From positions 15,457,805-15,493,660 of the forward strand of contig CP154954.1 in the NCBI GenBank assembly GCA_039621445.1: 35,856 bases of DNA. Reading direction: 5' to 3'. The position numbers and the translations under genes were made by a program. Positions 3,696 to 35,856 of the stretch are shown here, piece by piece. How positions within the stretch are numbered: the first letter of the stretch is position 1; every line of letters starts with the position of its first letter. The stretch is from Euglena gracilis. Taxonomy: Eukaryota. The notes under the pieces were generated by a model that made no database searches, was not told where the DNA came from, and was given only the letters and a program-made list of their open reading frames with translations.

Positions 3696-3761
3696 GCGGA
3701 GGGGCTCCCATTAGGAAATCCTAATAGGATGTTCTTCCATCCTAACTTCCTCATCGGGCAC

Positions 3762-15235: not shown

Positions 15236-15901
15236 GTATAGAAAAATCTGCATGAACAACACAAGGCAGAAAGAGACCACGCACAGGTAAAAGATTTATT
15301 TGGAACGCCCTTTGAAACGACAAGATGATCATGAGCATTGCCATATAATTTTTTTGTGCTTCTCCAAGAGATCAGATCGGGAGTTAGATAGGCCACACGT
15401 TGCAGTGTGTGAGAATGCTGCAGACGACGGCAAAAGAGGAAAATAAAAATTGCTCAGACCTGCAAAGTTCGTTGACAGCTTGAAAATAGTTCGCCGTGTT
15501 CAATGAGTTCACCTGAAAGGATTAAATTGAAAAAAGAAATTGTGATTCCCATTAAAAACAGGATCCATTTGAGATTGGCCAAACCTCAACGACCTGGCGG
15601 CCAAACTTGACAACCAATGGCCGCTCCTGATTGTAAACCCTGTAATTTTCTACCACTCTTTTCCAGTTTTTCCCTTTCTTGTGCTGTCAAGCAACGAGTC
15701 AAGCGTTTATGTGTCAAATCTGGGCTAGGAGGATATAAGTATTTGGTCTGAGAAGGGCAGTTCTGAGAATTGTGTGTACTTTCTGACGTGACGGTGGCTT
15801 CTGGTGTGATAGTGGGATGTGATAGTGACTTCTTAGGGGGGGGGTGCGCACTTTTTAGACAGTTGCCGGATTTGACGCGGTTCGGGGGCGCCTGGAGCAG
15901 G

Positions 15902-15922
15902 CAATTGCTTAAGCGCTGACCA

Positions 15923-15962
<40 letters not shown>

Positions 15963-16267
15963 GGGGTTGGGTGACGGTTTTTTCAAAGTGACGGACTGGT
16001 TTTTGGCCCGGACCCCTCCCCCCCCCCCCCCCCCCCCCCCCGGGGGGGGGGCCAGGGGTGGGCAAAAGTGGCTTGAGTAACCCCGGCGCCAAAGGCGCCG
16101 GAAAATTTTTTTGGGCCTAAAATGGCCTAAAGTGACTGGAAAGTGGCCTTTTTTCTGAGTGGCCGACCCCCGGGGGGGGGGGGTAGTGACTGGCTGGTTT
16201 TTAATGAGTGACTGACTGGTTTTTAAAAAAGTGGAGTGACCCCCCCCCCGGGGTCGGTAAGCAATTG
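15902..16267. mobile_element. MITE, TIR CAATTGCTTA, internal GTGACTGACTGG repeats
   Basis: Inverted ends; related copy at 34386-34701. Confidence 0.75.
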
Positions 16268-17430
16268 TTTGGCCCTGGAGCCCAAAAATTTCGGAAAGCA
16301 CTGGGTCTTCCTATGCGGCCCCTCCCTCCTGACCCCCCCCCGGGGTGGGCAAATAGTTGGCCTTTTTTTCCATTTCATTCCATAAAACAGTTGCCATAGT
16401 GCACCTATGAATGGCTCACGGGTGCTCACGGGTATGGCAATTGTGACCATTCACCCCTGCAATATACAGCACCCATGAATGCACCCAATTCCTCATGTGG
16501 GAAGCCTGTGAATGGTTAAAGGTTTTGAAGCATCCTGTTTTGATAATTTCTCTTATCGGCACCTACTGAGCTTGCCGAATTTGAGAGATTTAGAGCGAGA
16601 TTTAGAAAATTAGAGCTTTTTTAAAAAAAACCCTTTTTTGGTGCCATTTTATGACATTTTATGGACATTGAGGTGACACAGCTTTCCAAAACAAAAAGAC
16701 AGCTTTTTTTGGGTTGTAAAATTTTTTGAATGGAATTTTGCTTTTTCTCGTTGACAATCACACTTACTGAAAAATTTCCATTTTTGGTGACAAACTGCAC
16801 CCATCTTTTGGCACTCTTTTTCTCGGAGATGTTTTGGGGGGGGGGCATTTTTGGGTTTGCAGGTGCTTTAGGTGCGATGCGAAGAGACCGTTCTGCCCAG
16901 TAAAGGATTATTCTCACAGAAAAACACTTTTTTAAAAAAAATCAGCCCTAGTTCATCCCTTCGGATTCTCAGCAGCATGGCTTCTCAACAGCGTCCTAGC
17001 GTGCATGGGCGCTCCATTGCGACGCTGCTGAGGGAACAGGCAGAGGACCTTGGTCGCCATCACCTTCGGATCCTCGGGCGGAAGCAGTTCCTGAGCAATG
17101 GGATGCGCCCCGTGAGACTTCCAACCGAACATCCGGCCCGAATGACATCAACAGTCTCCAAATGAATGTGCCAAAATAATTAATTGCCATTTTGGCCCCA
17201 AACTATCATCAGCCGAAAATTGCATGCTAAGTTTCCATTTGTTGTTTGTCAATGTTTGTTGTTTGTTGTCACATAACCAAACAACAAAGAAATCCAAAAA
17301 CTGTAAGAAAACAACATTGTAAGAATATTAATATGTTTTGCTAATTTATCAATATAATTATATATTAATATAATTATTATATATTAATATAATTATTATA
17401 TATATTATATAATTATAATATTAATATAAT

Positions 17431-17699
17431 TAACGTGACCCCCCCCCCCTATTTGTCCCCCCCCCCAATTGGCCAAAGCCCAGGTGGCCAATTGGGGGGG
17501 GGGGGTTACTCATTTCAAGGGAAAATGCCTTTATTCGGGTGTTTTACGAGGGTTCGCGAATATGAAGGACGGGGTCTAAGTGGCCAATTAGGGGGGGGTT
17601 AGGGGCAACCCCCCCCCTAATTGTCCCCCCCCCCCTAATTGGCCAGAAGGGGGGTCCGGGCCGCCCGGAGGGCGGCCAAATAGGGGGGGGGGCAAGTTA
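17431..17699. mobile_element. TAACGTGACCCC-family MITE in a TA-rich site
   Basis: Inverted ends TAACGTGACCCC..TATTTG / CAAATAGGGG..GCAAGTTA; body near-identical to ~7994-8165. Confidence 0.8.
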
Positions 17700-17919
17700 T
17701 ATATGGGGGAGCATGGCCGGCCAGCCGTCAGCCAGCCATCAGCCAGCCGTGCAACTCAGTGGAAAATGACCCGAGCCACATCCTTGCAATGCAGAAATTT
17801 TTTTCCGGCAATCTCCCTTCAAGGCCATGTTCATCGTTGTTCGAGGCTGCATTTTTGCCTATTTGAAGTCATTTTTGCCAACTTTTGTCAATTTTGCCAA
17901 TTTTGGACTTTTTTGACCA

Positions 17920-18160
17920 AATTCTGACCATTTCGGCCTATTTTTTTTTGGATCATTCTATGGTCATTGTTTTCCATCTCAAAAAGTATCCATCTCAAAA
18001 ACTTCCACAACTGGTCACCCATTTTCAACGAATTGGCAAAATTTAACTTAGAAATGGACAATAATGGACGGAAAAAGGCTCAAATTTTGTGTGAAATGGT
18101 TTCAAGTGAACAAAAAAATGCCCAAAGCAGCCCCAATTGTTGAATTCAAAAGATAATTTA
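17920..18160 (+). repeat. Dispersed repeat; second copy at ~32080-32320
   Basis: Colinear similarity (TTCTATGGTCATTG...ATAATGGAC..AAAAAGGCTCAAA...AAGATAATTTA). Confidence 0.8.
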
Positions 18161-19242
18161 CCCTCACCCAACCCCACCCACTCCTTTGAACCCCCCCCCC
18201 CCATTGCCAATTGGAAGGCTGCGACACGGACCCCAAGGAGGAGGTTTGGCGAAATAGGAAAGGGGAAAATATAAAACGTTCGCAAAAAATAAATTATTGG
18301 GAAAAAGAGCAAAGTAGAACTACAACAAAAAAAAATGCCTCCAAAGGCTACAAAACTCGTCCCCCCATTGGTGGTTGGATGGGAATAGGGGGGGGGCGGG
18401 GAGGATGAGGGCAAACCATTGACGCAAAAATAGCCCGTCTGGAAGGACGGGCATTTGCCAAAAAGTGGGGGGGGCCAGAAATCCCCCCCAAAGGGAGGAT
18501 AACTTGTGCATACCAAAAGGAAGCATGCGTGAAAATGCATAGCCGACAATTTAGTCATATGGCATGCATGATGGTGGGTTTATCCCCCATGGGGGGAGCA
18601 TTCTAGGGGTTAGGTTTAGGGTTAGGGGGGGTCATTGGTGTGCCAAACCTAACCCCAAAAACAATAAACATGTTGGCAAAAAAAAAACGACAATAAAGGA
18701 AGAGGTAAATGTTACGTACATAATACCAAAAAATGTGCAGGAAAATCGCAAAAGGGAAATAAACAAGGGAAACAAAAACCTACAAGTGAACAGAAACGAA
18801 AAAATATTGACAAATTGGCCAATGGTTACAAGTACATTTTGGCAACTGCGAAATGGGTCAGAAAACCTCCAAAAACGTCCGTTTCAAAAATTTTAAATTT
18901 CGCTGGAAAAGAAAAAGTCATAACCAACCCAACTATGCACAAAAAAATCAACCAATTTTCCATAGATAAAAAATTTGGGGGCAGGGATCCTCGAGCCCCC
19001 ACTAACTGTCTCCCCCATAATTGGCCAATTGGGGGTCTGCAGGAGCCCGGGCATTCCAAATAGGGGGGGGATTGAGGGCAAAATGAACGCCCGAAACTAA
19101 GATATGGTACCCCCCCAAAAAAGCATTTGCACACCAAATTAGGCATTAGCCGCTGAAATTTAGCTGAAATATGCATTTGCCACTCATGCCACCCAAAATT
19201 GGGCATTTTCCACCAGAAAACAGGAATGAAGGTATGTGTAAA

Positions 19243-19321
19243 TTAGGGTTAGGGTTAGGGCTAGGGTTAGGGTTAGGGTTAGGTTTAGGGTTAGGGTTAA
19301 CCCTAACCCTAACCCTAACCC
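19243..19321. repeat. Inverted interstitial telomeric repeat, (TTAGGG)~9 then (CCCTAA)~4
   Basis: Read directly; palindromic junction GGGTTAACCC. Confidence 0.9.
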
Positions 19322-20730
19322 ACATGTGTGTGTGCATACATACATATATATATATGTATATATAACATGTTATGTCTGTGTGTGTATATGTAAAATACAT
19401 AAATATATTATTATGTATATGTATTAGATACCAAAATGTGGGGGGGAAATCCTGCAAAAAAAATCGGAAAATCGCCAAGGGAAAAACACACAAATGAAAC
19501 CAAAATAAAAATATTGCCAAACAAGTGGGGGACGTGACACAACTACGAGAACCATCCATTCTCACTTTTTTGACAGACATGTGTATTTTTTTTGTGTCAC
19601 AGGGGTTCTGGTAGGGATTCTATCGCCCCATTTTCAAGGGTGTGTGTTGTATGTGTTTCTCCTGGCTTGGTTTGGATCAAGGATGGGGTTTGGGTATCGT
19701 CAACGTTAAGGTGAGGTTTGGGGTGTACGCTTGGTTTCAGCCCTAAAATCAGTCCTGGAAAAGAGCGGGTTGGACCGCCAATAATTGTCCAGCCCAAATC
19801 GACCAAAATGCCAAATCATTTTTGGGGTTTCTTTGGTGATCCTTTCCTTTTGTCCTCCCCCCAGGTGGGTCTGGACCGCTGATATGTTTTTGCTTAAACT
19901 GCACACAGTCCAATGTCCACTAAAAAAATCAGTCCATTTCCAAAGTTCTGAAATTCTTCTTTCCCCTCCTTCTGAAATGATTTCCAAAGCCTCGGTTGGT
20001 CCAAGGAAATTTCCAGTCCAGACCCTGAAGTCCCCCCCCCCCTTGCCCACTGACCAGCCCAAAATACTGACCCCCCAGTTGGGGGTCGCAAGTTGGGGGG
20101 GGGGTTGCAGCTAAGGGGGTGCGTAGTGGGTGCGTCCCCCTCGGTTGGGGGTTGTAGGAGACCTGGTTTTTTTGGCAACTGGTCGTACGACCACTTTCCC
20201 TTCGGAGGTTGCAGGGCAGGGGGTGCGTATGACCACCCCCTGGTTGGGGGTTACAGGAACCCGTGGGCAAGGGGGGGGGGTTGAAATTTGGTTGGCTGAA
20301 GACCCCGTTGGATGCCGGCCAACGTAATAGGAATGGGTGGAATTGATCATATTTGGCAATGAATAAGGATGTGATACGATGAATCCTGCCCCCAGGGGGT
20401 CTGTCTCCAGTCGGTACTGATATGGAGCAGGAGACAGTTTAACGCAGCCCACCGGAGGGCCACTGGATTGGGTTGTTGACTGCCTTTTTTTTAATGCTCT
20501 TATTTTTTGTTCCCTTGTCTTTTTTGCCTTTTTCCCCAACGTTTTATTGCTCCGCAGAACCGTATGTCATTTTGCTCGGAACCATTTCAAAACTTGGTCA
20601 TATGGGGGGCAAGAGCATGTTGTTTGTCGGTTTCACGAAACGGTATGTGATATGCTTTCGTGTCGTGTCTCCTGTTGGACCTTAGACACTGCATTACCTT
20701 GACCGGATGCCCGACGTTGTCCGTTGACAG

Positions 20731-20857
20731 CAGCTCCCTGCCCCCCGCCGACCAAATTGTGACCCTGCCCCTCAGCCGCTCCCCGCGCCTCCCTGCCGAC
20801 GCGGGAGACTCTCCCCGGCTGCTGCCCTCCGCCCGCACCCCACCTCCCTGTTGCAAG
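20731..20857 (+). CDS. Putative 5' exon of the cyclase gene (start uncertain)
   Basis: GC-rich open frame (SSLPPADQIVTLPLSRSPRLP...PPPCCK) ending at AAG|GTGTGG; phase 0 matches the next exon. Confidence 0.4.
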
Positions 20858-22252
20858 GTGTGGGCAAAGCTTGAATTTTTCTGGGAGTAATAATAAAAAA
20901 ATATAGTAAAAAAATAATAAAAAATAAAAAAGTCAACAAAATTTATTTGGCTGGTCAGGAATTTCTCTTCAGCCTGGAGAGGCATCCAACAGCCATTGTG
21001 TTTTCTTTTTCCACCAGCCAGCAGCTCCCAGTCGGCCGAATTTTTTTTTTAAAAGAGATCTCAAAAAAATGCCAACAAATGTTCACCCTTGAAACTTTTT
21101 TTTGAGTTTTCAGCTGGATTTAGGCTTTTTTTGCCTGTCTGGCGTTAGGACCCCCCTCTCCCGGACTCCCCTGGAACGCCAGCACCTTTTTTTCCAGCCA
21201 ACCCCCTTATCCAGCTGGCTGGATGGTTCCCTAGGGTTCTTAAGAAATTCCTTGCTCTCAGAAAAAGTCAATAAGCATTCCAACCTGAAGGTTTGGGACC
21301 CCCCAACAACTTAGCTCACCAGCATGTTTGCGTTGTGGGGGGGGGATGGGCTGTGTGGTACCTTCATCAGCTAAGGCACCAGCAGTGGTGAAGGCGTGCG
21401 GCAACATTGGCCGCACATTCCCAGCCACACTCACTCAGCCCGCCCCGCAACCATGCCCAGCTTAGCGCAAAGTTGGCAGTAGGGGCCAGCCAACAGCTTT
21501 TTTCCAGCCACAGACCCCACTGGAAGGTTGTACCTCACTCCAAGAGGTCGGTGCTATTGACAGGCGGGGGGGGGGGGCACTTTCATCCGTCCAGGGTTGG
21601 GCCAAGGTGCCCGAGGTGCGAAGACGTCGGTGGTTATCTTTGTCCTTAATCCACAACTGACCAACCAACCTTCGGAATCCAACCCGGGGTTGGGGATGTT
21701 TTCAGGTTCTGGCTTGGGCCAATCCAGCCAATTTTCTGATACAAAAACTGTGTCCAGAATCCGAACCGGCGTTCTGAGTTGTTGAAACTGTGGATTTGGG
21801 GCTCTGGCTTCGCGCCCGAACCAGCGTTCAAGGAACCACAGCCAATTTCTCCCAAATACCCATTTTTGGAACTTTTTGGGGGCATTTTTGACCTCCTTTG
21901 CGCTTGGCCATGTCGATCGGCCGATTGAAGTTGTCGCATGTCTGATGCCCTGTTACCCATCGATGGAAAGCTCTTCTCAAGGGATTTTGACAGATGGCCA
22001 CAGGATTCAGCCATGCTGCACACAGCGCTTATTTTCAGCGATCGTGTATTCCAAAATTTGACATCTTAATTTGTGAAATCCCACACCTCAGGTGCCATGC
22101 AAGCATATCAATCAAAAGCTCCCCCCAAGACCTTTCGCTTGGTACCCTCAGAACCCAGCCACATTGTACAGCGCCCTGAGAATCGCCGATCGCATGTTCC
22201 GACCCTTTTCGCAAATTCCAAAATCCACTGTTCACCTGCCATGTTGCCCCTT

Positions 22253-22689
22253 CAGGGTTGATGAGTTAACCGGACATTTTGCAAACTGGTCGATTAACCG
22301 TGGTTAACCGGGCTCCTCGATCAATTTACCGATTCATGGCGTGCACAAGCGGGAAGCAGAAAAATTCCATGGGATCTGTTTATTTCCCAACAATGCCAAG
22401 GCCCCAAATTTTCTCCCTTTGGGCACGGCACGGACCCCCCCCCCCCAATGGTGATGATTGTGATCGGCAGGGGGTACGTTGTTTTCCCATAAGCAGGCAT
22501 CTCAAGCTCTTGCACAGTGATTTGCGAAACCGGCTGTCAGAGCAGTCTGTACATGCTCTGCTCTTTGTTCGGATGAACCTCGGGCCCCGACGGGGGCGGG
22601 GGATTTACATTAACCGATTGGGCCTTGGTCGATCGATTAACCGAGGGGGGGGGTCGATTAACCGAAGATTGGTTCCCCAAACAACCCTG
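22253..22689 (+). mobile_element. Non-autonomous hAT element with transposase dimerisation-domain remnant
   Basis: TIR CAGGGTTG/CAACCCTG; duplicated GCCCCTT flanks; TTAACCG subterminal repeats; internal peptide LLHSDLRNRLSEQSVHALLFVRMN resembles the hAT C-terminal motif. Confidence 0.85.
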
Positions 22690-23478
22690 GCCCCTTGATC
22701 GACAGCTCTTCTCAAGGGCTTTCCGCAGATGGCCTTAGATTTCAGCCGTGCTGCATGGTATTCTATTTCAGAAATTCGCCAAATTTGGCCAAATGGAAAT
22801 TATTGCACAAAATACCCCAATTTCTGGTCAAATACCCCCCAAAAACTGCTCAGGTATGATTGCCACATGTCTACTGACCATTTTGGACGCTTTTTTGGCA
22901 CTTTCATTTTGGGACCCCCAGAGGCTGACTTTCCGCCCGAAACGGCGAATTGGACACCGGTTCGGCGCAGAAATTTCTGCGCCGAACCAGCGTCCTGAAC
23001 GCCGGCTTGGGCGTGAAGCCAGAGCCCCAATACACGGTTTCACTGTTCTTGATGTTTTAGTTTTTTGGCGGCCTTGCTGTTTTGCTGTTTATTTTAGCTT
23101 CCTGTTTGCGGTTTTTTTTTGCACCGGATACAATTCCATCCCAGGAGCACCTTCGGGGGGGGGGGGTCGGAAGTGTGTGCGGGAGGTTCGCCAGTGGCCT
23201 TTTTCCAGCTGCACCAGCCCAAATTCCGAAAATTTTCCTGCCTTTAAGTAAATTTCCTCAATGCAGTCCTCAAAAAGTTGGCAGATGGCATTGGCAAATG
23301 AGGCACACATTGTTCAGTTCCTTGTTCTTTTGTTTCACCTCCTTTCCCAGAAATGAGCCTGTTTGTTTTCATTTCGTACCCTCCCGCTCCATTCGCTTTT
23401 GGTTTGCTGATTTTCTCGGCAAGGTGCTAATTCTTTTTTATTCACCAATAATGATTTCCAATAACGACAACCCCCCAG

Positions 23479-23657
23479 ACCAAATCGCATTGCGGGCCAT
23501 GCCGTCAAAAAGGGCAGCGCCCCCTCACCGGTCCCACTCGCCGGGCCTCAGCCTCCCCTCCAATTGTAGAGCTCACCGCCAGCCCCCTGTCGGACTACGA
23601 CCCCGTGATGGTCCCCAGCCCGGTGTCCTCCGCACTCAGTGTTGGATTCCCCAAGTG
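23479..23657 (+). CDS. Putative cyclase-gene exon (low-complexity N-terminal region)
   Basis: CCCCCCAG| acceptor; open frame TKSHCGPC...SPLSDYDPVMVPSPVSSALSVGFPK; donor GTGTAT at 23658 (or GTGGTG at 23655); phases fit both neighbours. Confidence 0.5.
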
Positions 23658-25614
23658 GTGTATAGTGTGAAATGTGAGACGTGGTGTCCTGTGAGAAATC
23701 TCACCACCAAACGTTTGAGTGTTTTCCAAAATGTGCTGCATTTCCAGCAAGTTGAGAGTGTGAGTTTGGCAATCCAGCCCCCCCCCCCCCCGCACGTTAA
23801 CGTATGTTTGCCCAGCTTCAAGTTTTGCCTTGATTCATGTCCTGGGGGGGTGACTGCGGGACCTCCCATGTGAACTTTCCACAAGAAATTCTTGTATGTC
23901 AGCCTTGCACAAGAACTGCCTTCTCCCTCTGGAAAAATGGTCCTCTTACCAACCCATTGCTCACCCCAAACCTGTTGCAAATGGTCCCCAAAATTCCTGT
24001 GTTGGGGGTGACCTGAACATGGATTCACATGGTTCACTTAACGCAGCAGGCTTCTTTTTAAGGGCTTATCTATTTATCCAGGGATGGGCAGGCAGAGGGC
24101 CAAGGCATCTTCGACCCTGTTGGAACCCCCCCACCCGGGGCGAAAATGGCCGTTTCAGGGAATTTTGGTCGGCATGCACCGGGATGCCAAATCGAGTATT
24201 GGCAGGCCTCCCACAGCACAAGGCAGTCTCCCCCCCCCCCCGAGAAAGAGTTTAAGGAAGCCTGTGAACCACACCCCCAAGGGCCCCCAGGTAGGGCAGA
24301 GTGAGGCGGGAGGGTGGGTTTTCGAGAGTGGGTGGATGAAGGTTGGTTGAAGACCATACCCTGCCCCCTGTGTTACTGCCCCCCCTGGTTATTGACCCCA
24401 GGCTTTTGGGCCCAAAGTTGACCCCTGCCCTGTTGGTCCCAAGCTGACCCGGGTCAATAAGAGGGGGGGGGGGTAGGCTGAAAGAAATCTGAGGCAAATT
24501 TTCGGGAGGCAGGTGGATTGTTAGTTGGGTTGACCCGATCAAGAAACCTGAAGGGGTCCATTTTCCAGGGGAATTTGCAGGCTTCGGGTTTGAATGATGA
24601 ACCAGCACGGGGCCTTTGCTCTGTTTAAGCCCCCATTCGCTCTGTCCAAAGGGGTCCCCCTGCGACCCCGCAACCCCCCTACGACCCACATATGGAGGGT
24701 TTCCAGATCCCAGTACCGGGGGGGGAATTTTGTCCTAGAAAAAATTTGCACGGACAAATTTCGCGGAAGCAAATCCCGCGAAATATTTCCAGACATTTTT
24801 AAGGAATCCCGCGAAATGTCCATCAGGTGCACAATGCTTCACAGACGCGAAATTGGAATCTATTCCGCGAAATTTGTCGCCGCAAAATTTCTCTGGCACG
24901 AAAATCATGTAGGAGCCAAAATGGTTAAAAAGACCTAATCAGGAATTGGCACCGAAATTAGGATTCAATTGCCAAAATTTGGATATATTTTTGGACCACA
25001 ACTCAAGGATGGGGAGAGGCTGCCCCTGAGGCCCAATCCAGTTGGTTGGAGGTGGCTTCCCGGCGGGGAGGGTGTGCTCACCGACCAAGGTTGCCCAATC
25101 AACCGGCCAACGGATCCCTGACCCCGTCGTCGCAGGTCTTCTGCGGCAGCCCCGTCCATGCCGCGGCTGTACCTCCGCCAGCCTGAGGGTTGAGCCGCCG
25201 TCCGCATCCCACAATGTACCATTCTGAGCAGACTTCTTTTGATTTGCTGGTAACAAAAATGAATGAGACAAGAGGCCAACTTTCTTGACTATTTTTGCTG
25301 AGGGCAACAACAATGAAGAAAACTGCCATTTCATAAACAAGTGTCGGTTTCTGAAGATTGTTGCCACTAGTGACATCTCGCCAAAAGTTCGATGTGGAGC
25401 ACCAAGCGTGCTAACACGAAGGGGCCTGGAGGGTCAGGATTGTCCATTACTTAGGGTGTGTCTGGCCACCCCCCTAGCTCACCTGCGCTATCTGGATCAC
25501 TTTTTTTTAACATTTATTTATTTCTGGAAACCTGTAAACTCTGCCTCCGTTTTTTTGTTGTTGTTTCGCTTCCACTCCTTTCCACCCTGTTTCCCCCCCC
25601 CCCCCCGTTGTCAG

Positions 25615-25741
25615 CTCCGGCCGCGGGTGTGGCGCCAAGGACCCCCGGCAGCGGGCCCTCCAGAAGCTGCTCAACAAGGCGGCGTCCAAGCTGAAGGCGA
25701 ACCCGGGCAGCACGCCGGAGGCCGTGCTGCGAGGGCTGCTG
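25615..25741 (+). CDS. Cyclase-gene exon
   Basis: Polypyrimidine tract + TCAG| acceptor; high GC3; SGRGCGAKDPRQRALQKLLNKAASKLKANPGSTPEAVLRGLL; followed by GAC-CAG non-conventional intron start. Confidence 0.65.
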
Positions 25742-26220
25742 GACCAGGCCTCCGGGTCCACCCATTACGTCCCCGGCCGGGGCCTGGCTGGCCCCCCAAG
25801 GGGGGCTGGGCTGGTGGGGACACATTTTGCTTTTCGGGTGCCTGGGGGGTTGTGTTCCGTTGTGATTTTCCCTCCCCCACAGGGGGTGTGGAATGGAGTT
25901 GCATATTTTTTGCATAATCCAATTTGTTTTTTTTTAAAAAAACCCACATGGTTTGTGTTTTTTCAACAACGTATATTGAATTTTTTGTCAGTTTTTGTAA
26001 GTTGGATCACAGTCCCCGTACGTTGCACTGGAGGAGGGGGGCCAAAGGGTGGAGGGAGGAGTAAAAGGATCCACCAGCCCAGCACGTTGCGAAAAAAAGA
26101 AGGAAAAAACTCATAATAAATAATAAACAGCCCAGAAATATGGAACTTCAGAGCCTGAGGACGGCAGAAGAGTGATGTCCCTCCCCCCAGTGGAGGCGGT
26201 CGCTGCCGGGTCCTGCCCCC

Positions 26221-26304
26221 ACATACTACTCCAACGCGCTGCCCCTCGTCAGCAGCCTGTGTCTGAGGCAGTACTCCACTAAGCCACACTGCCCGGGTAC
26301 CATC
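26221..26304 (+). CDS. Cyclase-gene exon
   Basis: TYYSNALPLVSSLCLRQYSTKPHCPGTI; CTG at -8..-6 upstream and CAG at +4..+6 downstream; phase 0 on both sides. Confidence 0.65.
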
Positions 26305-26598
26305 AGCCAGGGGGGGGGTCTCAACAGCCCGTCCGGGGCATTTCCTGTGCCAGTCTGGCCGGCATCATTTGCCATCCCTCCCCCGGGATGTTGTCGCCTT
26401 TGGAGGTTGTCACGCACCGGGGAAGTTGTCACCTCGGGCCGTGCCGACGGACTTGCCATTCTGGAAATTCTCCTCCACCCCCCCCCCCTCCCCCGCCCCC
26501 GGGAAGTTGTCACGAAGGCTTGCACCAGCTGATTTTCTAGGTGGCATCACGTCCTGGGGAGGGGGAATCATTTCTCTTTTAAAATCATTCAATATAAA

Positions 26599-26803
26599 TA
26601 ACCCCCCCCCCCAAATAACACCCCCCCCCGGTGTGTTATTTGGGCACCCGAACTGGGGCCCCAAGGGGGTGTGTTTTATTTGGGGGGGTGTTATTTTTAC
26701 ATGGAAACCAAAGGAAAACGGGGGGGGGGTGTTATTTGAGCGCTCGAAATCGGCCCCCGAGGGGGGGGGTGTTTTTTGGGGGGGTGTTATTTGGGGGGGT
26801 TTA
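26599..26803. mobile_element. Intronic MITE (CCCCCCCAAATAACACCCC TIR)
   Basis: Inverted ends with TA flanks. Confidence 0.75.
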
Positions 26804-26837
<34 letters not shown>

Positions 26838-26940
26838 GCCGTCGTCGTCGTCGTCGTCGTCGTTGTTGTTGTTATTCTTATTCTTACTCTTATTCTTACT
26901 CTTATTCTTATTCTTATTCTTGTTGTTGTTGTCGTTGTCG

Positions 26941-26978
<38 letters not shown>

Positions 26979-27625
26979 GATGTCATTGTCATTGTCGTTC
27001 TTCTTATTATTTTTATTATTATTGTTATTATTATTAATTATTATTATTATTTATTATTATTAATTGTTATTAATTATTATTTATTTATTAATTATTATTA
27101 ATTGTTATTAATTCTTATCAACAGTTATTAACAGTTATTAACAGTTATTAATTGTTATTAACTGTTATTAGCTGTTATTAACTGTTTTTAACTGTTATTA
27201 ATTGTTATTAATTATTTTTAATCATCATCATAATAATCATTATTAATCATTATTATAAATCATTATTATTACTTATTATTACGTATTATTACTTATTACT
27301 ATATTTATTACTTTGAATTATTAATGATAATTATTATTAATTATCATTAATTATTATTGAATTATTATAAAATTATTAATTATTGTTGATAATTATTAAA
27401 AATTATTAATTATTATTAATTCTTATTAATTATTATTGATTATTATTAATTCGTATTATTTGTTATTATTTGTTATTAACTGTTTTTTTTTTAAACTGTT
27501 ATTAACTGTCATTAGCTGTTGTTAATTGCTATCAACTGTTATTAACTGTTATTGATTATTATTAGATTGTTATTAATTGTTATTAATTGTTATTAATTTT
27601 TTTAATTGTTATTAATCGTTATCAA
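26804..27625. repeat. Compound microsatellite / AT-rich tract: (GTT)n, (GTC)n, (TTATTC)n, (ATT)n, (TTATTAACAG)n
   Basis: Read directly. Confidence 0.95.
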
Positions 27626-27653
27626 GTGGTATTGATTAGCATGAATTATTATC

Positions 27654-28734
27654 ACCTCCCCTCCCCCTTGTCCAACGACCGGGCTTGCCCAACGACCCCC
27701 CCCCCCGGTCAGAGACGATCTTTTCGTATACGATCTTGGGGAAATGAGACTTGATAATGTTCTTGCTTTTGATTTTGTCCTTTGCAGCTTCTCCGACTTC
27801 TGTGATGAACCACTACCCAATGGGTTGTTGTGTTCTCTATCGTCGCTCAAATGGTGACCTTGAAGAAGGCATCGTTGTGGGCCCCTGCCGGTACGGTGAT
27901 GGTTAAGCGCCTATAGTAAAAATGGCCGAAAATGGCCGAAAATAGCCGAAAATGAGAAAAAATTTGTTGCAATTATTTTTCGAGTTTTTTTGCTTAACAT
28001 TTTCTTTTTCCCTGGGGGGCAAATTCCAGTGCGACTGATTCTTGTCTCTGTACAGCCTCTCTTCTCCTGCCATTATGCCTGGCCCTGCAACACATGCTGC
28101 TCAAAGAACCACCTCCTAATGGGTTATTTGGGCCAAAGCTGAAGGTTTTGATGACATTTCAGAAAATTTTGTTGACAAGGGCGATGCTGGCATTTTTTTT
28201 GTATATTTTGAAGGATTAAACCCATTTTTGGGATAATTTCTCCACAAATCTCCAGTACCACACCCGCCTTGGATCAATTTGGATCAATTTTGGATCAATT
28301 TGCACTGATTTGGCAAATATTGAGCCAATTTCAGTCATTATGAGCACATCTTTGGCATTTTTGGCCATTTTGCGCCATTTTGGTGATTTTGGGTTATTTT
28401 TCAAATTTTTTTGTGGACATTGCTGGCATTTTAAGACAATTTTAGGTTATTTGAAGCCATTTTAGGTTATTTTGGTTGCTTTTTGGGGCTTTTTGTGGTC
28501 AATTTTGGGCTTTTTGTGGTCATTTTGCTGGGTTGGGAGCCAGTGCATGAGATTGGCTATTGCCAGGCGCGAAGCGCCAAAAATTTCCAGCGAGACGCGC
28601 CGGAAATCCCCCCCCCCCCCTTGTCTAACGACCCCCCCCCCCCTGGTCAGAGGCGAACATTGGCCATTTTAACGACCGCCCCCCCCCCCCGGTCAGAGAC
28701 AAATATTAGCGGTCGTTGGACAAGGGGGGGAGGT
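27654..28734. mobile_element. Intronic TIR element (~1.1 kb)
   Basis: ACCTCCCCTCCCCCTTGTCCAACGACCG ... CGGTCGTTGGACAAGGGGGGGAGGT. Confidence 0.8.
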
Positions 28735-28830
28735 AATTAGTATTAATTATTGCTAATTATTATGAAGTATTATTAAATATTATTAGTTATTATTATTTCA
28801 TCATCATCGTCGTCGTCGTCGTCGTCATCG

Positions 28831-28870
<40 letters not shown>

Positions 28871-29037
28871 TTTTATAATATATTTTATATATTTAAAGAA
28901 TTTACCACCCCAAAACATACAAACGCGTGTGGATAAACTGAAAATGCTTGTGCTCCCCCCAGCTCGTTGGTCCCCCAGCTCCGTGTCCAATGCACATTGT
29001 ATTCCCCTCAGAAGTTGCCCCCCCCCCCCTGCCGCCC

Positions 29038-29202
29038 GACTCTGCGGTGCTGATGCTCGACATCTGCCAGTACTCCCGCCTCACGGCGGCGCTCGCCCAT
29101 CTCGGGCCGCACATCCTGAACCGCTGCATCAATGGCTGCCTCTCCCCGATGATCGACCACATCCAGGCCGCCGGCGGCGACGTTATCAAGTTCGCCGGGG
29201 AC
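29038..29202 (+). CDS. Class III adenylate/guanylate cyclase (soluble, ADCY10-like) catalytic domain exon
   Basis: DSAVLMLDICQYSRLTAALAHLGPHILNRCINGCLSPMIDHIQAAGGDVIKFAGD; both metal-binding Asp positions and the GGDVIKFAGDA signature. Confidence 0.9.
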
Positions 29203-29837
29203 GCCCAGGGCAGGGGGTGGCCCCCAGGTGGGTGGCCCCCAAAGGGGAGGGTCCTCCACCGGCATCGAATGGTGGGCTCTTGAGCCATTTGATGACGTCA
29301 CAGACCAGGTAGTGGTCTTGTTATTCTTTGGCTTTGTGCTTCCAAAGAAACAGGAGTCGGAGTCTGCGGTTTCTTTTTTACCGATCACTCTCCTTTATTT
29401 GGCAGGCTGGCAACACCACTGCTACTGCGGGCCGGGGGGACCTTTTGGTTTACATCAGACTACAGTGGCAGGAGGACCTGAACCTGGAACTTTCTTCAAA
29501 GTTCCATTAAATTTTCCACAGCAGGCTTTCTTTTGTGGGATGGTTTGCTGCATTTTTTTTCCCATGCATTGAAATGCCAACGCCCAAGGCGTGTTTTCCT
29601 TTCTCCTCGTCCAATGCATACACAACACACACACACGCGCGCGCGCGCACGCACGCACGCACGCATGCACGCAAACACAGACACACACAAGCGTGCGCGC
29701 ACATATGCCCGTGCGCATGCACGCACGCACACACATACAATACACACACAACACACACACACACACACACATACACACACACACACACACATGCACACAC
29801 GCCAAAGGCACGCCTGCCCTCCCCCCGCCCTGCCGGC
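29203..29837 (+). other. Euglenid non-conventional intron (clearest example; others at 25742-26220, 26305-29037, 30024-31562, 35531-35755)
   Basis: No GT-AG; begins GCC-CAGGGCAGGGGG, ends CCCCCCGCCCTG-CCGGC; CAG at +4..+6 pairs with CTG at -8..-6; Y|R junctions; removal restores KFAGDAIV. Confidence 0.88.
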
Positions 29838-30023
29838 GCCATCGTGACGGTGTGGGCCAACAGCCGGCTGGCGGAGTCGGTGCGGCACGCGGTGGCATGT
29901 GCGCAGTGGTTGCAGGAGAACTGCGGCCACTCCCCGATCCCCGGCACGAACCAGACGCTGCAGATCCACATCGGCGTTGCGTGCGGCGCGCTGCGCTCCG
30001 AGATCCTGTACTCCCACTGCCCC
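29838..30023 (+). CDS. Cyclase domain exon
   Basis: AIVTVWANSRLAESVRHAVACAQWLQENCG...LQIHIGVACGALRSEILYSHCP; continues KFAGD|AIV in frame. Confidence 0.88.
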
Positions 30024-31562
30024 GACCAGGGTCGGGGGTCTCCCCCCCCCCAATTCTTGGCCGGACTGTAAACCACCCCAGAATGTCGAGGCCGTGTTTT
30101 TGTGGACCGACTCTCAGGGGTTACAACAATTTGGACCCGGGGGGGGGATGCCCCCCCCCCCCTCCTCCACCTGGGTACGCCCCCGGTATTTGGTGGACTG
30201 CAGCCACCCGGGGGACCTGGCGGCCGCCCACCACCGGGCCGTGGCTGCCGTCCACCACCGGGCGGTGGCAGCGGTGGCGCCCCCCGCCGCCCCGCCGCAC
30301 CGCCCGGTGCGGGTGTTTGGAAAGGCAGGGCTGTATGGGAATCCTGAAACCCGGTGGGTGGAATGTGACCCACCATCACCATAGCCCATGAGCCGGCAGA
30401 ACGTCTGGGGCTGGGGGGTGAGCACAAGAGGAGTTTGGGAGGGTATTCAACTGCCTGACCCAACCTCACCCCCACCCTCCCCGAACAAACCCAAATTGTA
30501 ATCCTGCCCCTGATTTTAATGGAAATCCTGAAATACAACTAAACACCCAAGCATCTCCTGCCAAAGTCCAGGGACCTCCCCTCCTTTCCGCAGGACCACC
30601 CCACCCACCACCTCACCGTGAAAAGAAAAAAAAACCTTTGGCTCTGAAGTAAAACTTTGACCAAAAAATCGGAAATACCTCGCAAATATAGAAATACACC
30701 AAGGGCCTGGTGGGGGGGGGTCGGACCCCCCACCCACCAGGTTGGGGGTGGGGGGTGGGTGCAGCCCATGAACTCTGACAGGACGCCACCCCACATGGGA
30801 TCCAGTTATCAGCCGAAGTGGAACCCACTCCCGGGGGGGTCAGCCAGTCAACAACTTTCTCCCAGCCAGCCGTCTCCCAGCCAGGCTGCCGAGGAGGAGG
30901 CTGCACCCCCCCTCCCCCGGATGGGGTGAGCCCAGCCCCTTTGGGGGCCAGCCCGGCAAAGTCAGGCTGGAGGTCAAGAATAGCCAAAAAAGGTTTTTCT
31001 GAGGAGTTTTGGAGGTCTCCACCAGAAATTTCCACTGAAAAATTTCCACCCAGCTAAAATCAAGGGGGGAAATTGATATCTGCAATTTTTCCGCAATTTC
31101 CGCAATTATCTGCAATTTCCACAATTTTTTCCAATTTTCCCCAATTTTTCCGCAATTTCCGCAATTTTTCGGAATTTTTTTTCTTTACGCAATTTTTTCG
31201 TATGAACCTGGAACGGAAGGCAAGATGACTTTTGGCCAGTCCTCGAACATTTCGCAAGGGAACCCAGGTGCTTTTTTTGTTACTTAATTGCTAAGTTGCC
31301 AAAATTTTGCAAATTTTACAAAATTTGACAAAATTGGCAATTTCTGGGCCTTAGGTTTTCCCCCAATTTCTGCTGGGAAATGATTTTGATTTAGAAGAAC
31401 TCCACATTCTGGACCAGATTTTTTTCTGAGACCAAACTTTTTATCAATTTTTTGCCGTTTTCGGATTTTTCACCAAGAAATTCCATATTTCCAAAATCTG
31501 AGTATATGGCTACCCGCCCCCGGTATGCACTTCCCGTTGCCGAGCTCCCCCTTCCTGCTGCC

Positions 31563-31643
31563 GAATGTGAGGACCTCCATTTTGTGTCCGGCACACCGCT
31601 GAAGGAGGCAGGGGAGGCCTTGGACTTCGCCAATGCGGCAGAG
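31563..31643 (+). CDS. Cyclase domain exon
   Basis: ECEDLHFVSGTPLKEAGEALDFANAAE matches the family's G-x-P...A...A...GE segment; non-conventional acceptor, GT donor. Confidence 0.8.
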
Positions 31644-32349
31644 GTGTGCCCCCTCTCCATTTCGGGGTGTGACGTTGCTCGACAGTTCACAGCAGAGCAG
31701 ATGAAAAATTCAACAACTTTTTTTTAGGAAAAAACAGAATTTTCGAATGGGACACTGGGCCATTTTTGTTGCTTTTTTTTCTTAACTTCATGCAATGTGG
31801 AATTGAATATTTGGTATCCATTTTTAGGCAGTTCTTTCTGATTTACCCCAGATACTGTCCTCTGGGCCTGCACATGCTAGCCCATCCCCAACAAGACCTG
31901 TCTCCAATCTCTGTGCTTGTTGGCCTGTGCCAAGGATGGATATTGCTATTGGGTTTGGAGGGGTCCCGATAAAACCCGATATATTGATCCCCTCCAATAT
32001 GCTCAATAAATCCGATAAATTCGATATGGAGTTGAAAAAAGTACCCAAATGAACACAATTTTGCCTTTTTTTTTGACTAATTCTGACCATTTTGGCCGAT
32101 TTTTGGGTCCTTCTATGGTCATTGTGAAGGATTTTCATTTAAAAAGTTTTCAAATGACCAAAAATTGCACAACTGGTGTCCCATTTCCAAAGAACTGGCA
32201 AAATTTACCTCAGATATGGATAATAATGGACAAAAAAGGCTCAAACTTTGTGTGAAATAGTTTTCAAGTGACCAAAATTGCCCAAAGCATCCCCTATTGC
32301 AGAATTTGAAAGATAATTTAAAGTGAATGTTAAAATTTGGTGCCCAATA

Positions 32350-32763
32350 TACCCCCCCCCCCCGAATAGAAGCCCCCGGGGGCTACTATTCGGAAAACTG
32401 GTCGAAAACCGAGGGGGGGGCTTCTATTCGGGGGGGGGGGGCACTATTCGGAAAAACGTGGTCTGAAACCAAGGGGTCTGAGCACTATCCAACAAGTTTC
32501 TTCGTGGGTCCATATGTCCTTTTCCAGCCATGTCAAATCTGTCGCCCCTAAACGTAAACAAACCCAACCCTCATTGAACCAATGGCTGAAGAAGCCAAAG
32601 GACTGTTGAGGTTCAAAGCAGCAATGGCTGCAGCCTTCGACCCCTGCCTTGCCGTCCCAACTGAGAGGCTTCCATTCGGGGGGGGGGCACTATTTGGAAA
32701 ACTGCTCGAAAACCGAGGGGGGGGCTTCTATTTGGGGGGGGGGGGCACTATTCGGGGGGGTTA
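32350..32763. mobile_element. Intronic MITE (CCCCCCGAATAG/CTATTCGGGGGG)
   Basis: Inverted ends, repeated CTATTCGG subterminal motif, TA flanks. Confidence 0.75.
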
Positions 32764-34385
32764 AAGCATTTGCAAACCAAAGTTGGCATTAGCTGCTGAA
32801 ATTGAGCAATTTTCACCCGAAATACGCATTTGTCACTCATGACACCCAAAATTGGATATTTTCAACCCGAAATAGGATTTGACACTCAAAATTAGGAATT
32901 TTCCAACCCAAATTTGGCCATTGCCCCACAAATTTGGCATTTGCCCCTCAAAATTATGAAGTTTTTCAATAATTAGGAAATCGCCGCTGAAAATTAGGCA
33001 TTTGCACACCAAATTAGGGTCGCCACTCAAATTTTCATATTTTACATCCAAAATGAGCCATTTGCAACTCAAAATTAGAAATTTACACATGGAATTAGGA
33101 ATTTGCTTCTCAAAATTAAGCATAGGCACACTAAAATAGGAATTAAATTAGGAATTTGCCTTTCAAAAACATCCGTTGACAAGGTAAATAGCAGGGTTTT
33201 TTTGCCCCCCCCCCCCCCGATAAAGCCGATATTTTACGATATTTTTCAGGGACCCGATAAATTCGAGATTTTCGATAAAAACCCGATATGGGCCGATAAC
33301 CAATATCCATTCTTGCCTGTGGGGAGACAGTTTTTTTTTCCTGTTGGGTTGGCAGGTTGATAAGTGATTTTGGTTTGTTCGGGGAGGGGTTGGACCAACC
33401 CAGGGGGTCAGACCCTGCCCCACCCCCTCCAGGCCAGGGAGTTTGGGGTTCTTCTGGGGGCGGGGAATGCGGACCGCATAATCCCGCATATTTTTTTTTT
33501 GGGATAATCCACATGGAAAGGCCCCAAAAGGCATTTGAGACAGTTGCTTTCTGTTTCAGGGAAGATTTTGTACCATTTTTTTTAAATCATATTTTCCCTT
33601 CTTTTGGAGTAGCAATATAAATGAGCATTATACAGATTATACAGAGTGTGAATTCTTGGACTGCATAATCCCGCATAATCCCATATAATCCCACGTTATT
33701 TTTCAAGGTCAAGAATCATTTCATCACGTACTCCCAAGTGATTTTTTTGTAATTTTTGGATTTCTTTCTCCACACTTAATCCTCTTTTTCACCCAATTTC
33801 ATTGATCTTTGTGATTACTCCAACATTTTTGTTGAATTATCTGCTTAGTTTGTTTGGCTCATTGTCGGGCAGAGGAGGGGGTTGTTATTTGGCATAACTC
33901 ATCGGCCAGCTCCCAAACCGTACATACGGGGAAAGGCCTCAAAATACAACAAAAGTTCATTTTTAATTCAAAAATGCCACCAAAAAATTCGAGTTTTTCT
34001 TACGTTAAATGTGAATTTACGTTGAAGAAACAAGACTTTTCCATTTCGAAAAAAATTTCTTCTTTATGTTTTACGATTTTGTCTCCACATGAGAGAAAAC
34101 CCTCTGGGATATTTAGATAAAATGGGATCTGGCCCTGCCCCTATCTCCCTGCAGGGACAGGGCTGTACGGGAATCCCAGAAACCTATGGATGGTGGGTGG
34201 GGGCGTCGACCCCATCCTGGTGCACAGTTTTCTTTTCGTTCAAAGCAAGGATGAATCTGCAGCCATTGGTGTGCCGTGAAACTTTTTAACCATTGAGCAA
34301 AAATAAAACAATGGAATGCAACTTTTTGGGAATAAGCACAAATATTTTTTGGAGGCAAAATGCAACAAATGCCAGCTCTGGGCCA

Positions 34386-34701
34386 TACCATTGCTTAATA
34401 CCTGCCCTACCCCACCCCCGGGGGGGGGTGACTGACTGCTTTTTTTCAGAGTGACTGACTGGTTTTCTGGCGAAGAACCCCGGTGGGCCCAAAAATGAAA
34501 AAATTGGCTAACCTGGCGCCAAAGGCGCCGGATTTTTTTTTTTTGGATTTGGAGGCTTTTTTTTGGCAAATGTTCATTGCCTCCTCCTCATCATTCAAGA
34601 GTGGCCAGTCCCCCCCCCCCCATGGGGTGGTAAAGTGACTGACTGGTTTTTTCAGAGTGGAAAGTGACCCCCTCCCCCCCGGGGGTCGCTAAGTAATGGT
34701 A
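34386..34701. mobile_element. Intronic MITE related to 15902-16267
   Basis: TACCATTGCTTA/TAAGTAATGGTA ends; GTGACTGACTGG repeats; shared GGCGCCAAAGGCGCCGG. Confidence 0.75.
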
Positions 34702-35394
34702 TGCTCTGGGCAAATGTATTTCAATGCTCCAGACAAAAAAATATTGACTCTTTTGGCAAACATTTTTGCCACCCGGGAAAATTGGCAATTTTTTTCGGGC
34801 ATAAAGCTTGCGTGAGGTGCAATGCCCAGGATAGAGCCATACACTTCAAAGTCCAATTTCTTCCGTAACTGGTTTGGGTTAATTTGATTCATTTCGTAAG
34901 TCATTTCAGGTTTTTGCATTCACATTGGCTGATTTGGCGATTTTTGGGACAGCTTGGGTCGTTTTTGGGCATTTTGGTCCTGTACTCAAGGCCAAACTTG
35001 CAGGGTTTCGACCTTGAATGCGAACAACAGCAATGCAACAACAGCAAAAAATGTATTCATTTTAGCATAATCCTGCATAATTACCGCATAATCCCGCATA
35101 ATTTTGAAAAAAGAATTGCCGCATTATTTCTCCCCCTGATTTTTCTTCCCTGGCGCTTAGCACCAGATTAGTGAGTGAAGTGAGTTTTTTCCACTTATTT
35201 CATGGGCTGTTCTTTGCGGGGGGAAAAAACTGCGCAAAAACACGATTTGTTCGGGCTTTTTTGAGCCCTAAATTTTTCTGGGCTTCACCCCGGATTTTCA
35301 TTTTTGGACAGGGGGTTCAACCCCCTGCCTCACTTGGTATCTTTGAGGTCGGTATTCAGGGGGAGGAAGGCAACCCCCCCCCCCTGCCCATCAG

Positions 35395-35530
35395 GTGTGC
35401 CTCACCGCGGCGTGCGCCGCGCTGTGCCCGGGGCTGGCGACGGTGGCCACCGGCCACCCGTCCATCGTCCGCCTCTCGGCACTGTCCGGCTCCCCAATCC
35501 AGGCCCCCGTGCTGGCCCTGGAGAAGCCCA
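35395..35530 (+). CDS. Cyclase-gene exon
   Basis: CATCAG| acceptor; VCLTAACAALCPGLATVATGHPSIVRLSALSGSPIQAPVLALEKP; joins as AAE|VCLT. Confidence 0.8.
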
Positions 35531-35755
35531 GGCCAGGGGCCGGCCGAGAGGTAGCGGTGCTGGGGACAAATTGCGACTGTGTGTTTCTGGCTTTTGATGG
35601 TCCGAGCAGCATTGAAAACGGGGCCAAAACTTGAATTTCCGACTTTTGAAGAAGGATCGCCGAGGTCGCCCACGCGACGCAAACAGGGGACCCCGCGCAC
35701 CATTTGTTCCTTGTTTGGGGGCTCGCCGGACACCAGTTCCCCTGCCCCTGCCTCC

Positions 35756-35856
35756 GCCACCTGGTCTCGGGCTTCGTTTCCCCGACCATCCTGAGCTGGC
35801 TGCAGCAGGGCCGGAGGCGCCCTTGCACCTGGGCCGTCCCCCCGCTACCCGCTCCG
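35756..35856 (+). CDS. Cyclase-gene exon, inter-domain linker (3' end uncertain, gene continues beyond window)
   Basis: Split codon A|GC then HLVSGFVSPTILSWLQQG, resembling the linker before the second cyclase domain. Confidence 0.65.

Follow-up and report, generated by a model that had tools for sequence, protein, structure and literature searches.

Besides conventional introns with GT-AG borders, euglenid genes contain introns of a nonconventional (NC), non-spliceosomal type, and the origin and removal of these NC introns are long-standing open questions. For the NC type a splicing code, 5'-N3CDG..CH'GN5-6|R, was defined experimentally: the 5' spacer of 3 nucleotides (nt) is strict, a 3' spacer of 5 nt is best while 6 nt is tolerated, the CDG requirement was shown by mutation, and introns of the CGG-CTG kind are spliceable (Nomura et al. 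2025, PMC12501133). In the same paper, 84.4% of the introns of Euglena agilis, conventional ones included, have short direct repeats at their flanks. An origin of NC introns from MITEs (miniature inverted-repeat transposable elements) has been proposed since 2014 on account of their inverted repeats (Milanowski 2014, PMC3935182), while in 2024 CAG/CTG were termed terminal inverted repeats (TIRs) and the junction repeats were likened to target site duplications, TSDs (PMC11282704), and the MITE idea was restated in the discussion of PMC12501133 and in PMC12621601; neither step named the type of element or made a prediction in numbers. One intron found in a single strain, intron 4 of gapC in E. 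agilis ACOI 323, was described with "eight nucleotide direct repeats" (Milanowski 2016, PMC4770533). Two other systems are close to this issue. In the introners of Micromonas and other algae, an element with TIRs and its TSD become an intron that is removed exactly, leaving one duplicate in the mRNA (PMC11282704), and the hAT transposon Hermes produces 8-bp TSDs at nTnnnnAn targets and carries subterminal repeats that are bound by a BED domain (PMC10368747). With these systems we compare here a stretch of 35,856 nt of Euglena gracilis (contig CP154954.1, positions 15,457,805 to 15,493,660), called the window throughout, which holds a cyclase-like gene with many NC introns and a number of free-standing TIR elements.

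Most introns of this gene are of the known NC type, and the window is rich in non-autonomous CA..TG elements with 8-bp duplications. An initial annotation of the window had pointed out that the 3 nt and 5 nt lying outside the inverted repeats of an NC intron add up to the 8 bp of such a duplication; the arithmetic is correct and agrees with the published spacers (PMC12501133). On balance we think it somewhat probable that NC introns are fossil, and occasionally young, insertions of TIR elements with 8-bp TSDs, by a mechanism that we infer below. That 3 + 5 equals the TSD length fits the published idea of a transposon origin, while the window does not prove it. Both the intron geometry and the transposon-origin idea are already known; the agreement in number with an 8-bp duplication sharpens the idea usefully and has one clean example in print, to which the window, as an illustration, adds context only. 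In the literature searched, with most subscription journals outside it, neither the link of 3 + 5 = 8 with the TSD nor the label of the hAT superfamily was found, and the word "hAT" is absent from PMC12501133, PMC11282704, PMC4770533 and PMC11170887.

Results

Introns of the cyclase-like gene

The gene runs on the + strand from 16977 past the end of the window and has 12 introns, of which 11 are complete (I1 to I11, Table 1). Its exons were located by tblastn of a protein predicted from the transcriptome, EG_transcript_2591 (eukprot; P0001, 912 amino acids, aa), which placed residues 1-428 on twelve exons between 16977 and 35814 with 5 substitutions; for the junctions, all donor/acceptor pairs that reproduce P0001 were enumerated, sliding ranges included. 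With 98% identity to the window's exon translation (61 aa, E 1.4e-32), the gene is an allele or close paralogue of EG_transcript_2591. Pfam gives AAA_16 with 21.5 bits and Guanylate_cyc with 19.1 bits on P0001, both under the cut-off, and a cyclase-like stretch, ..GDVIKFAGDA|IVTVW.., stands in the exon text. The span emphasized in the initial annotation, 22253-35755, lies in the middle of the gene, from inside I3 to I11. At the codon after the micro-exon the window predicts Lys and the transcript-derived protein has Ser, which means that the allele or the junction differs there.

GT-AG borders are found in two of the 11 complete introns (I4 and I10), and no GT-AG exists in any compatible register of I1, I2, I3, I5-I9 or I11. 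The published code fits five introns, with CGG/CTG in I6 and CAG/CTG in I7, I8, I9 and I11, and among these the spacing is 3 + 5 in I6, I8, I9 and I11 and 3 + 6 in I7. The build of 3 nt + CAGG(G)...(C)CCTG + 5 nt, which had been ascribed to the introns at large, therefore describes three of them exactly as N3-CAGG..CCTG-N5 (I8, I9, I11) and I6 as a CGG variant, but not the introns generally. Unlike those that follow the code, I2 (CGC..GCG), I3 (CAT..ATG) and tentatively I5 (CAT..GTG) keep the 3/5 pairing register with other letters, and belong to the 38.8% of NC introns that the code does not cover; in I2, positions +3..+8 pair with -10..-5. The next exon begins with a purine after I2, I3, I5-I9 and I11 and with T after I1, whose best end helix, CATCCGG/CCGGATG, is 6 and 10 nt away from the junctions. 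In their paired ends, their pyrimidine|purine (Y|R) junctions, their sliding over short direct repeats and their GT-AG neighbours in the same gene, the window introns resemble the euglenid NC introns described before (PMC3935182; PMC4770533; PMC12501133), with no essential difference save that I1 fits no described rule.

The pairing of intron ends was measured as the RNA duplex (in kcal/mol) between the first and the last 30 nt of each intron and compared with the mean for mismatched 5'/3' partners. The true partners were superior in I1 (-15.6 vs -10.1), I2 (-26.9 vs -10.8), I3, I6 (-37.3 vs -21.9), I7, I8 (-39.3 vs -25.5) and I11, and no stronger than mismatched ones in I9 (-20.7 vs -21.2). 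The GT-AG introns I4 (-12.9 vs -10.8) and I10 have no end pairing above mismatched partners. The N3 spacer of I8 pairs with the far end of N5, and the same is partly true of I6, I7 and I11.

Two further introns deserve a remark of their own. The perfect 9-bp direct repeat AGGTGTGCC at I10 (31642-31650 and 35393-35401) provides the AG|GT context of the donor as well as the acceptor; it is longer than the splice consensus alone explains, which hints at a gain by insertion or by staggered-break repair. I7 carries AT-rich satellites and a nested TIR element. An element of about 1.08 kb in its AT-rich satellite (27655-28733), with inverted ends of about 23 nt, CCTCCCC..CCTTGTCCAACGACC / GGTCGTTGGACAAGGGGGGGAGG, is probably of a different transposon class.

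Free-standing elements and their duplications

A scan of the window for TIRs that start with CA (12 nt, at most 2 mismatches, 60-4000 bp apart) yielded 399 pairs. Their flank identity has its mode at 1-2, and it reaches 8 of 8 in four pairs, namely the MITEs at 4919-5090, 9621-10049, 10140-10789 and 34384-34703. Without the restriction on the first letters, seven pairs had a perfect 8-bp flank repeat, these four and three more in low-complexity DNA, whereas in 20 first-order Markov shuffles such perfect 8-bp repeats numbered 0.05 per replicate. All four elements listed in the initial annotation (4919-5090, 9621-10049, 12009-12482, 22253-22689) were recovered in place, the first two with the exact 8-bp TSDs and CA...TG ends attributed to them, and the last two with the caveat already attached, that these CAGGG elements have duplications of 6 bp (12009-12482) and 7 bp (22253-22689). 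Among 54 CAG..CTG pairs with a perfect 8-nt TIR, these two are the only ones with a flank repeat of at least 6, as against 0.04 such cases per replicate in 50 shuffles. Across the window elements the TIRs measure 8-11 nt, and the 8-bp TSD is exact in the four MITEs, present with one indel in 15898-16271, and found in neither CAGGG element. The interior of 12009-12482 is made of GCGCATTTTT-like repeats.

The copy at 15898-16271 aligns to 34384-34703 with 240 identical positions in 444 columns, flanks included, and the two differ in the third terminal base: CAGGCAATTGC.. (CAGG) at the former vs CATACCATTGC.. (CATA) at the latter. Since one family contains a CAG-ended and a CAT-ended copy, its third terminal base varies, and the distinction between CAG and CAT that is relevant to the splicing code can vary within one MITE family. 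Homopolymers of C or G of up to about 36 nt (15925-15960, 16017-16050 and many more), often arranged in the repeats as palindromes of a C-run and a G-run, make indel errors in short duplications plausible. Two 255-bp copies at 5524-5776 and 7029-7285 (89.5% identical), with ends GGGGGGTTGGTAC..GTACCAACCCCCC and a flank repeat of just 3-5 bp, are another TIR family with a shorter duplication.

All six copies of the heptamer TTAACCG in the 35.8-kb window lie within the element at 22253-22689 (22266-22664), three near each end and in one orientation; these copies are likely subterminal repeats of the kind bound by a transposase, and the element, with such repeats at its ends, is a genuine transposon of the non-autonomous kind. 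About 740 bp upstream, a diverged paralogous stretch (about 21950-21965) has a single 7-nt copy at the matching site, and this empty-like site argues for a duplication of 7 bp rather than 8 bp. Five metagenome loci that match the 19-nt left end of the element share just 19-22 nt with it and were set aside as chance matches.

A published intron between two 8-bp copies

In Table S3 of PMC4770533, read by hand, the recently gained intron 4 of gapC (E. agilis ACOI 323) is GTCCC|aac cattaccttg...ccaaggtatg gtccc|AACTC. Both of its 8-mers are GTCCCAAC, its core is CAT..ATG with an inverted repeat of about 9 nt, its spacers are 3 + 5 and the following exon starts with A; by its letters, then, this intron is exactly a TIR element plus one 8-bp TSD. 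It is like I3 in the CAT..ATG core, the N3 and N5 spacers and the A as first exon base, and its ends resemble those of the CATACC-type MITE at 34384-34703; CAT at +4..+6 is shared by I3 and I5 and by three of the four MITEs with exact TSDs. The difference is that the duplicate of gapC intron 4 is perfect (8/8) while the window introns keep 3-5 of 8, which is background. The wider E. agilis data contain two related features. Y|R stands at both junctions in 49-55 of 55 introns (PMC4770533), as expected from two copies of one target, and in our hand count of the NC intron positions in Table S3, A is the second exon base (TSD position 7) in 8 of 10, in line with nTnnnnAn, and T is at exon -4 (TSD position 2) in 4 of 10. 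In older introns, at tubB positions 9 and 15, twelve rows counted by hand gave flank identities of 3, 2, 4, 2, 4, 4 and 4, 2, 4, 2, 2, 5 of 8, that is, no signal, which is expected if the intronic halves drift.

From these data the following course of events may be pictured. A TIR element with an 8-bp TSD would insert in an exon, with ends able to pair in the required register, and the NC machinery would then excise the element together with 3 nt from the end of the left duplicate and 5 nt from the start of the right one. As such an excision would take out the element plus exactly one 8-bp duplicate, the mRNA would be restored without a scar. The difference of 2 nt between the spacers would, by our own inference only, reflect the nuclease, either because it cuts in a staggered way or through a bulge of 2 nt after CTG. 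The suggestion that hAT insertions could become perfect introns in this way gains, apart from the superfamily, from the arithmetic, from the local elements with 8-bp TSDs and from gapC intron 4, but it finds no duplicate above background in the gene at hand.

Observations against this origin and against the hAT label

A number of results weigh against the transposon origin. If the introns were insertions of this kind, the 8-mer to the left (5 exon and 3 intron nt) should recall the 8-mer to the right (5 intron and 3 exon nt) in the N3/N5 register. The identities in I3, I5, I6, I7, I8, I9 and I11 are 5, 4, 4, 3, 5, 4 and 4 of 8 (mean 4.14), against an average of 3.67 for the 42 mismatched left/right pairs, and the observed sum is attained in 648 of 5040 permutations; the background is this high because all flanks are rich in C/G and share Y|R. 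An apparent excess with the first five introns (4.2 vs 3.4; 4 of 120 permutations) vanished with seven introns in the junction register. The partial repeats reported earlier at some intron flanks have the letters quoted for them (5/8 and 4/8), but unmatched flanks share 3.4-3.7 of 8 as it is, and in this window the repeats do not rise above chance. The introns of this gene are old, with duplicates decayed to background, and they lend no statistical weight to a transposon origin. Moreover, in a self-BLAST of the window no intron terminus matches a free-standing element, another intron or another locus, the only matches elsewhere being those of nested repeats within I1 and I10. I7, with 3 + 6, has 9 nt outside the hairpin, and I1 fits no register. 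The four MITEs with exact 8-bp duplications start with CAA or CAT, which the CDG code does not admit. Clear duplications beside CAG..CTG elements exist in two cases only, of 6 and 7 bp, and 3 + 5 splicing of these two would not restore the frame. The 8-nt repeats of gapC intron 4 are ascribed by their authors preferably to double-strand-break (DSB) repair (PMC4770533). Finally, the junctions are based on a predicted protein, taken from the transcriptome of an allele with 98% identity, and not on reads.

On the same side stand the searches for a hAT protein. A remnant of a hAT transposase had been read in 22253-22689, and this was not confirmed: its open reading frame (ORF, 22270-22698) has no match in Pfam or among PDB sequences at E up to 10, none in two word-indexed searches of 5.8 billion proteins, and none at E up to 0.001 when 1.84 billion representatives were compared by phmmer. 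A Pfam scan of 129 of the 222 ORFs of at least 75 aa (1-22304; those with a start at 22077 or before) found no transposase family, the other 93 being outside the scan save five fragments. The AlphaFold2 single-sequence model of ORF residues 44-106 is unusable (predicted local distance difference test, pLDDT, 45.7). In a protein-language-model atlas, clusters of PF05699, the hAT C-terminal dimerisation domain, are in the top three named matches, with scores of 0.88 and 0.87 for the whole ORF and 0.89 and 0.89 for residues 44-106, and being under the 0.9 line these make PF05699 a lead only. The letters ..SDLRNRLSEQSVHALLFVRMNL.. resemble the C-terminal motif of hAT, a likeness that is not counted as evidence here. 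As to target preference, the TSDs of five window elements have A at position 7 in four and the T of nTnnnnAn at position 2 in just one, in what is a small sample. Short TIRs and subterminal repeats are present, a feature that is not specific to hAT, and the putative hAT trace belongs to the element whose duplication is 7 bp long.

The hAT label of these elements is therefore a reasonable guess, plausible and unproven, based on the 8-bp TSD, the short CA-initial TIRs, the subterminal repeats and the weak PF05699-like lead. Compared with hAT and Hermes (PMC10368747), the likeness consists of 8-bp TSDs in four to five window elements, short TIRs starting with CA, the subterminal repeats in 22253-22689 and A7 in four of five; unlike them, the window elements have no detectable hAT domain or transposase in the searches made, have CATA ends or, in the CAGGG elements, duplications of 6 or 7 bp, and show T2 in one of five. 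What had been said of the window, that it points to a specific superfamily, is not backed by any alignment-based match to a hAT protein.

Features of the window

The coordinates of exons, introns and elements are collected in Table 1. Upstream of the gene there are two long stop-free frames on the - strand, 1-1803 (601 codons) and 2253-3710 (486 codons), neither with a Pfam match, and tandem repeats at 1206-1571 and 4144-4878.

Table 1. Exons and introns of the cyclase-like gene and TIR elements in the window, in window coordinates
Feature	Position	Strand	Length	Description
Exon	16977-17123	+		P0001 tblastn
Intron I1	17124-20719	+	3596 nt	Non-GT-AG, not slidable, neither code fits; next exon starts with T
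Exon	20720-20830	+		P0001 tblastn
Intron I2	20831-21405	+	575 nt	Nonconventional; CGC/GCG at the CAG/CTG positions; junctions C|G...C|A
Exon	21406-21448/50	+		P0001 tblastn
Intron I3	21449-23506	+	2058 nt	Can slide over CAA; when read in the -2 register, N3(AAC)-CATGCCC...GGGCCATG-N5(CCGTC)|A, CAT/ATG; holds element 22253-22689
Exon	23507/09-23622	+		P0001 tblastn
Intron I4	23623-25135	+		Conventional GT-AG (GTGTCC...GTCGCAG)
Micro-exon	25136-25153	+	18 nt	VFCGSP, between GT-AG I4 and nonconventional I5; P0001 tblastn
Intron I5, tentative	25154-25636	+	483 nt	N3(GTC)-CATGCCGCGG...CCGCGGGTGTG-N5(GCGCC)|A; CAT/GTG; needs Lys for Ser
Exon	25637-25774	+		P0001 tblastn
Intron I6	25775-26220	+	446 nt	N3(GGC)-CGG...CTG-N5(CCCCC)|A; junction direct repeat CCCC
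Exon	26221-26304	+		P0001 tblastn
Intron I7	26305-29037	+	2733 nt	N3(AGC)-CAGGGGGGGGG...CCCCCCCCCCCCTG-N6(CCGCCC)|G; perfect 11-nt terminal inverted repeat
Exon	29038-29202	+		P0001 tblastn
Intron I8	29203-29837	+	635 nt	N3(GCC)-CAGGGCAGGGGG...CCCCCCGCCCTG-N5(CCGGC)|G; TIR of about 15-17 nt; junction direct repeat CGCC
Exon	29838-30023	+		P0001 tblastn
Intron I9	30024-31562	+	1539 nt	N3(GAC)-CAGGGTCGGGGG...CCCCCTTCCTG-N5(CTGCC)|G; junction direct repeat CCGA
Exon	31563-31643	+		P0001 tblastn
Intron I10	31644-35394	+	3751 nt	Conventional GT-AG; flanked by 9-bp direct repeat AGGTGTGCC; holds MITE 34384-34703
Exon	35395-35530	+		P0001 tblastn
Intron I11	35531-35755	+	225 nt	N3(GGC)-CAGGGGC...GCCCCTG-N5(CCTCC)|G
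Exon	35756-35814	+		P0001 tblastn; I12 follows, cut by the window end
MITE	4919-5090	.	172 bp	TIR CAAGGTTCCCG, 11 nt; exact 8-bp TSD CCTACCAG on both sides
MITE	9621-10049	.	429 bp	TIR CATAGCTGGC, 10 nt; exact 8-bp TSD AAAGCAAA on both sides
MITE	10140-10789	.	650 bp	TIR CATAGTGGGC, 10 nt; exact 8-bp TSD ACAGCAAC; absent from the initial annotation
TIR element	12009-12482	.	474 bp	CAGGGGGGGGAAATGCG...CGCATTTCCCCCCCCCTG; ends CAGGGGGGGG..CCCCCCCCCTG; adjacent 6-bp duplication CATAAC
Older copy, family of 34384-34703	15898-16271	.		Ends CAGGCAATTGCTTA...TAAGCAATTGTTTG; flanks GCCTGGAG / GCCCTGGAG, 8 bp and one extra C
Non-autonomous TIR element, nested in I3	22253-22689	+	437 bp	TIR CAGGGTTG, 8 nt, CAGGGTTG..CAACCCTG; 7-bp duplication GCCCCTT
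MITE in I10	34384-34703	.	320 bp	TIR CATACCATT(G/A)CTTA; exact 8-bp TSD CTCTGGGC; absent from the initial annotation

Discussion

The equality of 3 + 5 with an 8-bp duplication could be a coincidence, in which the 3/5 spacing is the ruler of the splicing enzyme, for instance an RNase III-like or tRNA-endonuclease-like activity on the terminal helix, the 8-bp MITEs are unrelated neighbours, and new NC introns arise via DSB repair or by conversion of conventional introns. We consider this unlikely. For it speak the following points: the introns of this gene have no TSD signal, the CDG code is missing from the 8-bp MITEs, the duplications at CAG-ended elements measure 6/7 bp, N6 is tolerated (PMC12501133) and used by I7, direct repeats are as common in E. 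agilis as stated above (84.4% of introns, PMC12501133) and even the GT-AG intron I10 has one of 9 bp, DSB repair was proposed by Milanowski 2016 (PMC4770533), and excision of the RNase III or tRNA type was proposed in PMC12621601. Against it, the CAT..ATG inverted-repeat core of gapC intron 4 sits exactly between two 8-bp copies, which is the signature of a TIR transposon and not of break-repair filler; the same type of ends and the same duplication length recur in four to five free elements of the window; and an enzymatic ruler gives a fixed spacing, not a sum of spacers equal to the duplication length of local transposons. The opposite direction, in which the MITE-like elements would be mobilised introns, re-inserted from circular NC-intron RNA by reverse splicing or reverse transcription, appears very improbable to us. 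NC introns are indeed released as circles (cited in PMC11282704 and PMC12621601) and a role of circular introns as intermediates of transposition has been under discussion (PMC11146597), but the exact 8-bp duplications, the perfect TIRs of 10-11 nt and the subterminal repeats, in intergenic as well as intronic copies, are marks of cut-and-paste transposition, and the window contains no sign of a reverse-transcribed copy.

A different question is whether the transposon origin is right and the superfamily is not hAT, the elements belonging to another or an undescribed DDE family with duplications of 8 bp, perhaps also 6-7 bp; we hold this to be possible though doubtful. The end consensus of hAT elements is YARNG, to which the CATA start of three of the four MITEs with exact TSDs is a misfit. 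In the same direction go the outcome of every HMMER-based search for a hAT domain, all of them empty, the 7-bp duplication of the very element with the putative remnant, and T at target position 2 in one of five elements only. The opposing evidence is that the nearest named clusters in the atlas are PF05699 for both queries, that A is at target position 7 in four of five elements, and that short subterminal repeats together with an 8-bp TSD are typical of hAT (PMC10368747).

Returning to NC introns as insertions of elements with 8-bp TSDs, the comparison with introners is instructive. Introners are spliceosomal, the element bringing a GT/GC site and a 3-bp TSD supplying AG (PMC11282704), whereas here removal is guided by a hairpin at fixed 3/5 offsets, apparently without the spliceosome, and the duplication is 8 bp. 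In introner-like systems many introns are near-identical copies of one element family; among the introns of the window, no end has a match at another of its loci. We put forward, as a tentative possibility, that euglenids run a non-spliceosomal "introner" system of their own, in which one superfamily with 8-bp TSDs (hAT-like, with CAG/CAT...CTG/ATG ends) is matched to hairpin-guided NC splicing, so that the spacers must sum to 8. Under such an introner-like reading, the scarless erasure of any exonic insertion would explain why about 70% of Euglena introns are NC.

For the biology of euglenids, the relation between the spacers, 3 + 5, and a TSD of 8 makes the MITE idea sharply testable, and it gives a new reading to an 8-nt repeat that was put down to break repair when published. 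If true, no earlier pipeline from transposon to intron would have bypassed the spliceosome, and the relation would explain how the genome tolerates a massive load of transposons in its exons.

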